From the NCBI GenBank assembly GCA_963664705.1, contig OY761556.1:4448001-4512000 (forward strand): a stretch of 64,000 bases of DNA. Reading direction: 5' to 3'. The notes beneath the pieces are model-generated. The model made no database searches and was not told where the DNA came from. It was given only the letters and a program-made list of their open reading frames with translations. Made by a program: the position numbers and the translations under genes. The stretch is from Acidobacteriota bacterium (GTDB lineage: Bacteria; Acidobacteriota; UBA6911). Positions within the stretch are counted from its first letter, which is position 1. Each line of letters begins with the position of its first letter. Below are positions 23,398 to 38,636 of the stretch, one piece after another.

Positions 23398-24213
23398 ATG
23401 AAGGGACGATCCTACATTACTGTTTTGTTTGTTATTGTGGTTCTCCTATTCTCTTCGGCTGCCGGATACTCCAAGACTTCGGCCCGTAAGCGGGCTAAAC
23501 GTGTATCTCAAAAGACCACCCAAACAGGACAAAAATACACGGTTCACCCGGGCGACAATCTGGGAAAAATCGCCAAGGATTTCGGCATCACAACCAAGGC
23601 GATTCAAGCGGCCAACGGGATGAAGAACAACAGGATCAAAGCGGGCCAAGTCCTGAACATACCTGTCTCGAAAACGGCAAAAGCCAAACAGGAAAAAGCA
23701 CCGGTAAAACCGCAGCTGCCCGACATTCTGAATACGTTGAACAAGGCAACCTATATGTCCGCGGTAGCTCCGGCTCCTGCCGACACGGAAGAGGTAAAGG
23801 ACTCTGAAGATATCCCGACGAGGATTCGTCTGGTGCAGGCCGGGTTTGAAATGCTCGGCGTGCGCTATCGTTTCGGGGGATCCGGATCCAGCGGAATTGA
23901 TTGTTCCGGCCTGGTAAAAAATCTTTTCTCCAAATTCAACATTGATCTGCCCAGATCTTCGAAAGAACAGTACCAGCAGGGAAAGAAAGTCAGCAAAGAT
24001 GACTTGCAGGTTGGAGACCTGGTTTTCTTTTCCTCAGGTGGTACCCAGCCGACGCATGTTGGGATTTATATAGGCAACAACCAGTTTTTGCATGCGGCTC
24101 GAAAGGCCAAGCAAGTGGTTGTCAGCGATCTCAGCAAATTGTGGTATACGATGCGCTACCTTGGAGCCCGACGAATCGCCGGACTCTGGGGGGATGACCC
24201 GGTTACCGAATAA
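23398..24213 (+). CDS. LysM + NlpC/P60 (C40) cell-wall endopeptidase
   Basis: Signal peptide; YTVHPGDNL.KIA LysM; YRFGG...GIDCSG, GDLVFF, HVGIY, FLHA. Confidence 0.94.
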   Translation: MKGRSYITVLFVIVVLLFSSAAGYSKTSARKRAKRVSQKTTQTGQKYTVHPGDNLGKIAKDFGITTKAIQAANGMKNNRIKAGQVLNIPVSKTAKAKQEKAPVKPQLPDILNTLNKATYMSAVAPAPADTEEVKDSEDIPTRIRLVQAGFEMLGVRYRFGGSGSSGIDCSGLVKNLFSKFNIDLPRSSKEQYQQGKKVSKDDLQVGDLVFFSSGGTQPTHVGIYIGNNQFLHAARKAKQVVVSDLSKLWYTMRYLGARRIAGLWGDDPVTE

Positions 24214-24297
24214 TCTTCGCTCTCAAAAGCAGCCACTAATTCCACGAATTCCCACGAATTTAGTTGATCAAATTGTATCCAGCCCAATTAGATAGGT

Positions 24298-24663
24298 ATG
24301 TTGCTGAACAAGGAACTATCCTATCGCATTGTGGGAGCAGCCATGGAGGTGCACCGTGAACTCGGTTGCGGCTTCCTCGAAGCAGTGTACGAAGACGCAC
24401 TGTGTCACGAGTTCATTCTGAGCAGCATCCCATACCAGCGCCAGGTGGAGATTCCAATCTATTATAAGGGAGTTCGGATGGGTAAATATTTCGCCGATCT
24501 CCTGGTCGATGGGACGATCATTGTTGAAATCAAAGCTGCCTCCGGCTTTGCAGAGAGGCATATAGCTCAGGCGCTGCATTATCTGGCTGCAACGGATCTT
24601 AGATTGGCAATCCTCATTAACTTTGGCACTCAATCCCTGCAAACAAAGCGTGTTATCCGGTGA
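24298..24663 (+). CDS. GxxExxY family protein (PD-(D/E)XK nuclease-like)
   Basis: IVGAAMEVHRELGCGFLEAVY (GxxExxY), ADLLV...IVEIK, Q..HYL, LINFG. Confidence 0.93.
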   Translation: MLLNKELSYRIVGAAMEVHRELGCGFLEAVYEDALCHEFILSSIPYQRQVEIPIYYKGVRMGKYFADLLVDGTIIVEIKAASGFAERHIAQALHYLAATDLRLAILINFGTQSLQTKRVIR

Positions 24664-24762
24664 TTCGTGTAAATTCGTGGAATTCGAAGCCAAGCAGCCA
24701 CTAATTCCACGAATTCCCACGAATTTTATTGATCAAATTGTATCCAGCTCAATTAGATAGGT

Positions 24763-24903
24763 ATGTTGCTGAACAGTGTACGAAGATGCACTGTGCCACG
24801 AGTTCATTCTGCGTTGCATTATCTGGCTGCAACGGATCTTAGATTGGCAATCCTCATTAACTTTGGCACTCAATCCCTGCAAACAAAGCGTGTTATCCGG
24901 TGA
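24763..24903 (+). pseudogene. internally deleted GxxExxY copy 2; still an open 46-aa mini-ORF
   Basis: MLLNSVRRCTVPRVHSALHYLAATDLRLAILINFGTQSLQTKRVIR*; lacks the equivalents of 24311-24384 and 24421-24571. Confidence 0.8.
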
Positions 24904-24991
24904 TTCGCGTAAATTTGTGGAATTCGAAGCCAAGCAGCCACTAATTCCACGAATTTTTTGATCAAACTGTATCCAGACCAATGAGACAGGC

Positions 24992-25132
24992 ATGTTGCTG
25001 AACAGTGTACGAAGAGGCACTGTGTCACGAGTTCATCCTGCGCTGCATTATCTGGCTGCAACGGATCTTAGATTGGCGATCCTCATTAACTTTGGCACTC
25101 AATCCCTGCAAACAAAGCGTGTTATCCGGTGA
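24992..25132 (+). pseudogene. internally deleted GxxExxY copy 3; still an open 46-aa mini-ORF
   Basis: MLLNSVRRGTVSRVHPALHYLAATDLRLAILINFGTQSLQTKRVIR*; same two deletions as copy 2. Confidence 0.8.
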
Positions 25133-25324
25133 TTCGTGTAAATTCGTGGAATTCGTGGCCGTTTTTGTTTTTGCAATCTGAAATTATCATGTTGTGGTAT
25201 GCTTGCGCACTCATGACAATGCAGTATCAGCATGAAGCAGTAGCCCGGCATCATTGTCTGAAAAATTGTTTTAAGCTGAAATACGCCCAATTTCAGCCAT
25301 TCTGATCACTAAAAGGAGCGAAGC

Positions 25325-26686
25325 ATGGTTGATTATGTAAATATTTTTATGTCCCGCCTGCAGGCCAAGAATCCCGGTGAAACGGAATTCCACCAGGCTG
25401 TTCAGGAAGTTGTTGAATCTCTCTCTCTTGTTCTGGACAGGCATCCGGAATATCGGTCTGCCAAGATTCTGGAACGCATCGTTGAGCCCGAACGCGTCCT
25501 CATGTTCCGGGTACCCTGGACAGATGACCAGGGAGAAATCCAAGTAAACCGCGGATTCCGCATTGAAATGAACAGCGCTATCGGCCCATACAAAGGCGGC
25601 CTGCGTTTTCATCCTTCCGTAAATCTCGGCATTCTGAAATTCCTGGCCTTCGAACAGGTATTCAAGAACAGCCTGACGACGCTTCCTATGGGCGGTGGCA
25701 AGGGCGGATCGGACTTTGATCCTAAGGGGAAAAGCAACAATGAAGTCATGCGCTTCTGCCAGAGCTTCATGACCGAGCTCAGCCGACATATCGGCCCCAA
25801 CACGGACGTTCCGGCCGGAGACATCGGCGTCGGCGGACGGGAGATCGGTTATATGTTCGGTCAGTACAAGAGACTGCGCAATGAGTTCACCGGTGTATTG
25901 ACCGGCAAAGGCTTGAACTGGGGCGGATCCCTAATCCGGCCGGAAGCCACCGGCTATGGCTGCGTTTATTTCTGCGCCGAAATGTTGGCCACTCGCAACC
26001 AGACCATGGAAGGCAAGATTTGCCTTGTTTCCGGAAGCGGAAACGTATCTCAATACACCATCGAAAAGATCCTGCAACTGGGCGGCAAAGTTGTCACATG
26101 CTCCGACTCCGACGGCTACATCTATGATGAAGAAGGCATCGATGAAAAGAAGCTGGCATACATCATGGAACTGAAGAACGTGAAGAGGGGAAGAATCAAG
26201 GCCTACGTCGAAAAGTACAAGAACGCCGTGTACACACCGGTGGATCGGTCCAAGGATTACAATCCTCTCTGGGATCACAAAGCAGACTGCGCATTCCCAA
26301 GCGCGACCCAGAATGAAATCAACGCGAAGGATGCCCGCAATCTGTTGAAGAACGGTGTCTACGTGATCGGAGAAGGCGCCAACATGCCGACGCACTTCGA
26401 AGGCGTGCGCCTCTTCCTCGATGCGAGGGTTCTGTACGGACCGGGAAAAGCAGCCAATGCCGGCGGCGTGGCGGTATCCGGACTGGAAATGTCCCAGAAC
26501 AGCATGCGTCTACCCTGGACCAAACAGGAAGTGGACAACAGGCTGGGCATGATCATGAAGAGCATCCATGCCACATGCGTGGAATGTGCAGATCGTTTCG
26601 GCACTCCTGGCAATTACGTCAACGGTGCCAACATCGGCGGATTCCTCAAAGTTGCGGATGCAATGATCGATCAAGGCTTGGTCTAG
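25325..26686 (+). CDS. gdhA: NADP-specific glutamate dehydrogenase
   Basis: GPYKGGLRFHPSV, FEQVFKNSLT.LPMGGGKGGSDF, DVPAGDIGVG, RPEATGYG, SGSGNV, GKAANAGGVA.SGLEMSQN. Confidence 0.96.
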   Translation: MVDYVNIFMSRLQAKNPGETEFHQAVQEVVESLSLVLDRHPEYRSAKILERIVEPERVLMFRVPWTDDQGEIQVNRGFRIEMNSAIGPYKGGLRFHPSVNLGILKFLAFEQVFKNSLTTLPMGGGKGGSDFDPKGKSNNEVMRFCQSFMTELSRHIGPNTDVPAGDIGVGGREIGYMFGQYKRLRNEFTGVLTGKGLNWGGSLIRPEATGYGCVYFCAEMLATRNQTMEGKICLVSGSGNVSQYTIEKILQLGGKVVTCSDSDGYIYDEEGIDEKKLAYIMELKNVKRGRIKAYVEKYKNAVYTPVDRSKDYNPLWDHKADCAFPSATQNEINAKDARNLLKNGVYVIGEGANMPTHFEGVRLFLDARVLYGPGKAANAGGVAVSGLEMSQNSMRLPWTKQEVDNRLGMIMKSIHATCVECADRFGTPGNYVNGANIGGFLKVADAMIDQGLV

Positions 26687-26707: not shown

Positions 26708-26771
26708 AGCCACGAATTGCACGACTTCAGCGAACCGTTTATGGCTCGTGTATTGCGTGCAATTCGTGGCT
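26708..26771. repeat. gene-less CACGAATT inverted-repeat element (REP/MITE-like), possibly also a terminator after gdhA
   Basis: Perfect 16-bp IR agccacgaattgcacg / cgtgcaattcgtggct followed by a T-rich tail; same ends as the GxxExxY cassette. Confidence 0.85.
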
Positions 26772-38577: not shown

Positions 38578-38636
38578 TGCCACGAATTACACGAATTATA
38601 CCGAATCAGGCCTCAATATTCGTGCAATTCGTGGCA
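38578..38636. repeat. gene-less CACGAATT inverted-repeat element
   Basis: tgccacgaattacacgaat / attcgtgcaattcgtggca (18 of 19 complementary). Confidence 0.85.

Follow-up and report, generated by a model that had tools for sequence, protein, structure and literature searches.

In an Acidobacteriota genome, a small gene of the GxxExxY family lies between two runs of a short word that face each other as inverted repeats, which raises the question of whether the encoded protein reads these repeats and whether gene and repeats together form a mobile unit. The family is a large one, since 7,987 of 8,000 scored candidates proved to be homologues. The row that PMC3424549 gives to it lists it as of unknown function with multiple transfers, and repeats are not mentioned in that row. 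An earlier note on this DNA had proposed an autonomous selfish or addiction-like cassette whose product recognizes its own iterated ends, analogous to RAYT/REP systems with a different catalytic fold. Here we analyzed the window, i.e., the whole 64-kb stretch of DNA around the gene, together with its genome (G000) and other genomes of the same genus (the other G numbers). Positions are those of the whole window on the + strand unless given as G000:C1, and A-type designates the type of the window gene.

Results

Organization of the locus

The cassette, its copies and its surroundings comprise the following features.

23398..24213, + strand: host neighbor, LysM-NlpC/P60 gene, outside the element
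24227..24691, + strand: unit u1, the full cassette (left arm, GxxExxY gene, right arm), 465 nt
24232..24259, + strand: left arm, a GC tip followed by three 7-base words at 9- and 10-nt spacing
24298..24663, + strand: GxxExxY gene, 121 aa, PD-(D/E)XK fold, with E28, D67, E77, K79, Q91 and Y95 intact
24601..24603, + strand: codon of R102, which co-varies with the second base of the arm word
24663..24690, - strand: right arm of u1, consisting of three words (two substitutions in the outermost) and overlapping the stop codon by 1 nt
24663..24724, no strand assigned: u1/u2 junction, where two arms lie back to back and form a hairpin (as RNA -29.1 kcal/mol, z -6.1)
24692..24931, + strand: unit u2, a tandem copy with two internal deletions that retains both arms
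24932..25159, + strand: unit u3, with the same two deletions, a shortened left arm and a canonical right arm followed by a T-rich run
25325..26686, + strand: host neighbor, gdhA (NADP glutamate dehydrogenase), outside the element
26709..26770, no strand assigned: gene-less hairpin of the same word family, just 3' of gdhA
38579..38635, no strand assigned: second gene-less hairpin of this word family in the window

The arm word is the 7-base CACGAAT, found in inverted runs on both sides of the gene. Words start at 24234, 24243 and 24253 in the left arm, which begins 19 nt past the NlpC/P60 stop codon, and at 24663, 24673 and 24682 on the reverse strand in the right arm, the last of them being degenerate with two substitutions. 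The bracketing of the gene by inverted iterated arms described in the earlier note is real, with three words per side and 91% complementarity over 22 nt (24238-24259 versus 24663-24684); the overlap of the right arm with the TGA stop amounts to one base. Family matches agreed with the placement of the cassette between NlpC/P60 and gdhA. As had also been stated, the window has no Pfam match to a transposase or integrase family among its 43 ORFs of at least 100 aa (40 searched at E <= 1e-8, the other 3 in a separate search). Between the arms, where a single ORF has a family match, there is no gene for an antitoxin or a methylase/methyltransferase. No rRNA match was found at the locus, the unit being intergenic between protein genes, and a promoter and terminator scan of 24150-25330 yielded nothing above chance, with no canonical terminator called at the locus.

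The earlier description of a cassette stands, yet it was incomplete in that it overlooked the tandem copies u2 and u3 and the genome-wide arm family. Units u2 (240 nt) and u3 (228 nt) follow the 465-nt u1 head to tail. Their deletions span 74 and 151 nt, with microhomologies of 2 and 1 nt. The copies are mosaic: u3 differs from u1 at 1 of 116 bases in its right part and from u2 at 10 of 84 bases in one stretch of its left part. An assembly artifact was rejected as the origin of the copies, as short-read contigs reproduced the copy junctions without differences, although these come from one sample that is possibly the source of the assembly itself and hence not independent. A 318-nt contig from another sample matches exactly over 130 nt (24835-24964, comprising the gene 3' end and the u2/u3 junction) and has unrelated flanks; it stems either from a copy at another site in a related strain or from a chimera.

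A conserved protein with a PD-(D/E)XK fold

The window protein scored 141.7 bits against TIGR04256 (cut-off 35) and 132.4 bits against PF13366 (cut-off 22). These were its sole family matches, with no HUH/Y1 or DDE transposase among them. A structure model (pLDDT 96) matched best the Cas4 protein SSO0001 (Z 8.3, rmsd 3.4 over 98 residues), followed by BpuSI, BglII and other PD-(D/E)XK enzymes. The best Foldseek match had an E value of 1.1e-3, with none at E <= 0.001, and a search for sequence relatives among solved structures found none. According to the model, the fold is of the Cas4/lambda-exonuclease/restriction type; scores as modest as these speak to fold, not to function. The assignment to GxxExxY and PD-(D/E)XK proteins made in the earlier note was upheld by the curated cut-offs, which were exceeded, and by the model, which shows the core fold with D...E-x-K residues.

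Each of D67, E77 and K79 is found in 266 of 267 proteins, and E28, D67, E77, K79 and Q91 are retained in 264-266 of these 267, whose loci were picked by similarity to the query. The dN/dS ratio was 0.04-0.28 in the 22 unsaturated pairs out of 25; the 3 saturated pairs were all among A-type genes of the genus, two of them involving the window's gene. GxxExxY genes are thus under purifying selection. The nearest database homologues outside the genus are mostly from Chloroflexota, at up to 62% identity, and same-genus A-type genes are 54-60% identical.

Arms form a genome-wide repeat family

Two adjacent words occur 54 times in the genome (47 clusters) and 0 times in each of two order-4 Markov genomes. 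A looser scan detected 135 arms at 92 loci, compared with 3 and 5 raw matches in shuffled sequence. By crude ORF calls, 84 of the 92 arm loci lie outside ORFs, whereas 84% of random positions lie inside, and arm loci are a median of 32 nt past a stop codon. They are found 40 times between convergent, 41 times between tandem and 3 times between divergent genes, against a background of 627 convergent and 779 divergent gaps. The arms make up 29 inward pairs, 44 outward pairs and 32 solo arms, and the hairpin spacers are mostly unique rather than clonal. The tip-to-tip spacers of the 44 outward hairpins fall into groups around 10 and 15-21 nt, approximately one and two helical turns, and several share a common spacer core.

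Arms and their outer flanks pair better within their own hairpin than across hairpins (0 of 2,000 permutations as good). One single arm analyzed alone does not fold (z 0.62, 142 of 200 shuffles as good); arm pairs fold. A target-site duplication of at least 4 nt was found at 1 of 29 hairpins versus 5.9% after permutation, and long direct repeats at 1 of 92 A loci. An Rfam search of six loci gave no match at the gathering score; the 7 matches below it were all to miRNA-precursor models, none at the window's locus. No dispersed remnants of the window's own gene were found in G000, where internally deleted copies occur in tandem only.

The arms are therefore a REP-like, genome-wide repeat family. 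They also occur where no gene was found: a search of G010 (97% complete, in 310 contigs) gave 161 matches to the arm and none to GxxExxY, and nine further genomes devoid of an A-type gene have 11-53 arm matches.

Filled and gene-less alleles of the site

Empty NlpC/P60-gdhA sites, which the earlier note had suggested looking for in relatives, do exist. None of 22 NlpC/P60 orthologue loci in relatives carries a GxxExxY gene; 13 have gdhA directly behind, and the gene is absent from all 13 of these orthologous gaps. The two closest ones, in G002 and G014, hold a gene-less hairpin that belongs to the window's word family right after the stop codon. Those of G005, G017 and G029 (L011, L012 and L014) have other iterated-word runs behind the NlpC/P60 stop codon, and the remaining ones are plain or have single words. 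The presence of other iterated words at the same position suggests that the gap is a repeated landing place. The site thus has filled and gene-less alleles, by gain or loss.

Some GxxExxY match was found in 12 of 30 genus genomes. A comparison of 18 genus loci with G000 allowed placement by both flanks for 6 of them. The A-type gene of G002 lies at a different site, at which G000 has no arm and downstream synteny breaks. A D-type cassette is present in opposite orientations at one site in G002 (L051) and G014 (L042), and in G000 the same slot (G000:C1:361552-362056, L150) is occupied by a four-helix-bundle cassette instead. The C-type gene (G000:C1:3800612-3800947, L003; L053 and L056 in the relatives) has the same neighbors in G000, G002 and G014. 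Its arms face outward, and its arm word drifts while the gene stays in place. The C-type copy of G002 has an in-frame stop near its end. At the site of the B-type gene of G007, G000 has a gene-less hairpin of approximately 7-nt words (G000:C1:442607-442757).

The word varies with the protein

We defined inverted arms by a local alignment score of at least 26 between the upstream flank and the reverse-complemented downstream flank. Such arms were found at 73 of 98 GxxExxY loci; the corresponding counts were 4 of 600 for genome ORFs and 6 of 177 for neighboring ORFs (2 of 100 loci were dropped for short flanks, and one pair of rows was duplicated). In a fresh set, from which 13 of 168 loci were dropped for short flanks, they were present at 109 of 155. 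The enrichment of iterated inverted repeats at GxxExxY flanks anticipated in the earlier note is therefore clear relative to the control ORFs. At 4 of 143 loci, the gene is adjoined by partial copies of its own 3' end; the control gave 4 of 200 ORFs, three of which overlap those same elements and one of which adjoins one.

The expected co-variation of repeat and protein clade was also observed. Similarity across arms grows with protein identity (rho 0.64 over 4,656 pairs, Mantel 0 of 999): 7% of pairs below 35% identity, 56% at 45-55% and 96% above 70% have an arm score of at least 26. G000 has three intact GxxExxY paralogues, each with its own word. Paralogues of different clades in one genome have arms in common in 1 of 13 pairs, and this pair reflects an A hairpin beside gene B. 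The window's word recurs in other phyla, at 46 of 53 loci from Chloroflexota and 7 of 13 from Bacteroidota. In a quick tree, whose arm labels were defined once the arms had been seen, a single starred branch accounts for each of the B, D and E words. Wherever a genome has such a gene (3 of 3), the arm word of the resident gene is also the one that prevails genome-wide; the counts of GAAT and GGAT words are 37 and 0 in G000, 4 and 133 in G002, and 186 and 57 in G024. Co-inheritance of gene and arms explains part of the correlation between word and protein.

Residue 102 tracks base 2 of the word

In the A-type loci of the discovery set, no other core column predicted base 2 of the word as well as column 102. 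Residue 102 is R, K or H with CAC words and mostly E, Q, D, P or S with CGC words. In the discovery set, R/K/H was present in 50 of 51 CAC loci and other residues in 14 of 16 CGC loci. This rule was fixed as a prediction before two further sets were scored. It held in 35 of 38 CAC and 19 of 21 CGC fresh loci (Fisher p 2e-10, with kin that are not independent), and in 31 of 39 CAC and 18 of 23 CGC loci of other word subtypes; mixed-word loci were dropped (3, 3 and 6 in the discovery, fresh and other-subtype sets, respectively). Altogether, 167 of 188 classifiable loci obey the rule and 21 break it, the remaining 79 of the total of 267 loci being unclassifiable. By mutual information, position 102 ranked first in all three sets (0.67, 0.67 and 0.40, with runners-up at 0.34, 0.39 and 0.38). 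Counter-cases also exist: K102 occurs together with CGC words in two E-type genes that the word filter had excluded.

On trees built without column 102, word and residue changed 15 and 15 times, respectively, among 126 loci and 24 and 27 times among 188 loci. Starred, i.e., well-supported, branches provided 6 independent pairs, with on average 5.2 changing the same way and 0.0 the opposite way, and 7 pairs with 4.7 and 0.0. The phylogenetically independent test gave a median p of 0.0625, which is not significant. The association between residue 102 and base 2 is therefore strong and repeated across sets of sequences, with a phylogenetic test that is no more than suggestive.

In the model, residue 102 is located just before the strand that comes after the QxxxY helix. 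The O4 of T is a hydrogen-bond acceptor and the N4 of C a donor, so that T offers an acceptor to R, K or H, and C a donor to D, E or Q. The swap between R/K/H and D/E/Q fits a readout of T versus C on the opposite strand, and residue 102 is predicted to contact base 2 of the word. As residue 102 changes together with one word base across species, the protein likely reads these repeats. Judging from aligned sequences, we consider it probable that it does so by direct binding. Recognition by the product of its own iterated ends, as proposed in the earlier note, would thus be supported by residue 102 in three sets of loci.

C-terminal tails also tracked CGC words, a signal that we set aside because the ORF may simply read into the arm. 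A recognition residue for word position 5 was sought as well; S/T8 and V/I12 came out on top and were not retained, with only 4 independent pairs and a median p of 0.25.

Neighboring families and confounding elements

The paralogous B family comprises 43 arm-paired elements at 26 loci, 41 of them with gene B remnants, and B elements are commonest in genomes with an intact B gene. At 16 of the 26 loci the elements abut ends of an intact IS1634-type element; the other 10 have no such end by that scan. Long flanking direct repeats are present at 12 of 26 B loci versus 7 of 400 controls and 1 of 92 A loci, some of them stemming from tandem arrays or from the element's own flanks. Two IS1634-family members are reported to make long direct repeats, according to the portion of PMC2266710 consulted. 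G000 has an intact IS1634-family element with 13-bp inverted ends (G000:C1:6057793-6059434, L142). Given the abutting IS1634 ends and the long direct repeats, we did not count the B family as proof of mobility driven by GxxExxY proteins; IS1634 ends likely spread it.

Several further features of the B family were observed. Related IS1634-type ends flank B cassettes in G005, G021 and G022. Tandem arrays of 7, 4 and 3 internally deleted B cassettes are located at G000:C1:5193430-5195095, 5548034-5549287 and 5929814-5930814 (L143, L144), and three further B loci have an interior whose orientation is reversed with respect to the flanks.

A similar layout surrounds genes of another kind. G000 has five TIGR02436 four-helix-bundle genes (C1:3325358, 3103103, 1375899, 235720 and 361654; L146-L150), and in wide windows all five have inverted iterated arms of approximately 7-nt period with their own words. 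In the standard window, inverted arms were found at 22 of 30 four-helix-bundle genes overall (3 of 33 having been dropped) and at 3 of 5 in G000. Some of these arm words also flank nearby host genes. To our knowledge, four-helix-bundle proteins are not known as nucleases. As they share this organization, layout alone does not imply a nuclease-driven mechanism.

A RAYT was rejected as the mobilizer of the arms: the genome has a single Y1 tyrosine transposase gene (G000:C1:1439920-1440261, L007), which has its own, unrelated GC-rich palindromes in a RAYT-like layout.

Discussion

A model for the element and its alternatives

We propose that the GxxExxY protein reads its word and cuts at the arms, and that host repair copies, flips, duplicates or deletes the unit, a reading to which we assign a probability of about 0.5. 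The protein would bind the arm word directly, with residue 102 contacting base 2, and might then nick or cut at the arms. Host recombination and gap repair would copy, flip, duplicate or internally delete the DNA bounded by arms, such that cutting would drive the spread. As in homing, gene-less hairpins would serve as landing sites and would at the same time be offspring of the element. With the word present at 92 loci, cutting would have to be limited, and it may be confined, e.g., to extruded hairpins or by low expression. The absence of target-site duplications together with the short microhomologies of the deletions fits repair-based copying better than insertion by a transposase. As the fold is that of a hydrolase without strand-joining chemistry, host repair would be needed. 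The same consideration leaves the autonomy claimed in the earlier note in doubt, as do the stable inheritance of one paralogue and the layout shared with four-helix-bundle genes.

The protein might instead serve the host, reading the word to bind or trim post-stop hairpins as RNA or DNA, with its own arms autoregulating the gene and the spread of hairpins being a slow side effect, as argued for RAYTs. The setting of the arms favors such a service, with 84 of 92 loci outside ORFs, 40 convergent versus 3 divergent gaps and a median distance of 32 nt past a stop, and so do the preferential pairing of arms within their own hairpin (0 of 2,000 permutations), the C-type gene inherited in place while its word drifts, and purifying selection on the gene. 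Against a host function stand a GxxExxY match in only 12 of 30 genus genomes, A-type genes at different sites in G000 and G002, homologues outside the genus (mostly Chloroflexota, up to 62% identity) about as close as same-genus A-type genes (54-60%), and the lack of a called canonical terminator at the locus. We regard it as unlikely, if quite conceivable.

The gene could also be passive cargo, the arms being spread by another factor or by IS transposases, with small genes of several kinds caught between them. This would account for the four-helix-bundle genes, which have this layout with words of their own and in one slot take the place of a GxxExxY cassette, for the B loci that abut an IS1634-type end (16 of 26) or have long flanking direct repeats (12 of 26), and for the persistence of repeats in genomes where no gene was found, such as G010 with its 161 matches. 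Cargo, however, would not show one internal residue tracking one word base in three sets, nor a word conserved across phyla at approximately 50% protein identity; in addition, the A family lacks direct repeats of the IS1634 type (1 of 92), and the palindromes of the genome's only Y1 transposase are unrelated. We thus find it rather improbable. An addiction or defense nuclease that cuts unprotected DNA carrying its word would agree with the restriction-type fold and with the PADLOC results, in which type IIG restriction enzymes and Cas4 were matched weakly (E 0.007-0.03) and nothing was matched strongly. The host chromosome itself carries 92 word loci, however, no antitoxin or methylase gene lies between the arms, and the gene is missing from the site in 13 of 13 relatives. 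With no partner gene enclosed and a gene so readily absent, the addiction part of the earlier proposal is not sustained, and we hold this explanation to be very improbable.

Extending the cutting model to the whole family is possible but doubtful. In that extension, GxxExxY proteins would be minimal nucleases with a simple residue-to-base code for reading iterated words. They would drive transposase-free REP-like elements by cutting at hairpin arms and homing via host repair into hairpins that lack a gene, and would compete with convergent four-helix-bundle cassettes for slots behind stop codons.

Comparison with known systems

According to the parts of PMC3116915 and PMC3337134 consulted, REPtron or REPIN-RAYT systems have a short gene flanked by repeats that are also found without a gene, as extragenic hairpin doublets whose spacers vary; every paralogue is associated with a separate repeat group, and tandem clusters occur. 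The present elements resemble these accounts in their abundant extragenic repeats, hairpin doublets, separate repeat group per enzyme paralogue and tandem copies. They differ in having an enzyme of PD-(D/E)XK fold rather than an HUH/Y1 transposase, an arm made of an iterated direct word of 9-10 nt period rather than a palindrome (z 0.62), and a gene that is often inside the loop between two half-hairpins. The RAYT/REP analogy drawn in the earlier note thus holds for the layout and fails for the enzyme and the structure of the repeat.

In TIRtrons, as far as described in the sections of PMC3733652 consulted, the gene also lies directly between inverted repeats, some of which form moderately abundant families; unlike the protein studied here, TIRYTs keep the HUH motif and the catalytic tyrosine, and those sections do not describe the repeats as iterated words. 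The S23p-bearing intervening sequences of 23S rRNA, as presented in the part of PMC4990558 consulted, similarly have a small ORF within a loop that is closed by the pairing of terminal inverted repeats, but S23p has a fold unrelated to PF13366, and our site lies between protein genes, not in rRNA. IS elements and MITEs (e.g., IS1634, from the same portion of PMC2266710) likewise comprise a full element plus internally deleted copies that keep both ends. They differ from our unit, which has no DDE transposase, no target-site duplication and spacers that are mostly unique rather than clonal. The four-helix-bundle (TIGR02436) cassettes have iterated inverted arms too, but with words of approximately 7 nt and an unrelated fold.

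Free-standing homing endonuclease genes encode a lone nuclease, rely on host repair for their spread and have a unique host target. The GxxExxY cassette is similar in its lone putative nuclease, whose spread would likewise rely on host repair, and in the filled and gene-less alleles of one site; it differs in that its presumed target is a dispersed repeat carried by the element itself and in belonging to PF13366.

We found no published description of a GxxExxY nuclease-plus-repeat system in the literature searched, which mostly excluded subscription papers and supplements, and the GxxExxY gene with its arms would likely define an undescribed element of that kind. This locus contributes four points: a tandem array of deleted copies, a slot shared with a four-helix-bundle cassette, the caveat raised by IS1634 and the rule for residue 102.

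If our reading is true, it would provide a first function for the large GxxExxY family of unknown function and account for intergenic hairpin repeats of a kind that several phyla possess. Until now, REP-type repeats have been linked with HUH transposases; a PD-(D/E)XK partner would represent a second route to the same layout. The residue-102 rule makes recognition checkable by swapping one residue and one base, and a 121-aa nuclease with switchable specificity, if real, would be of interest as a tool.
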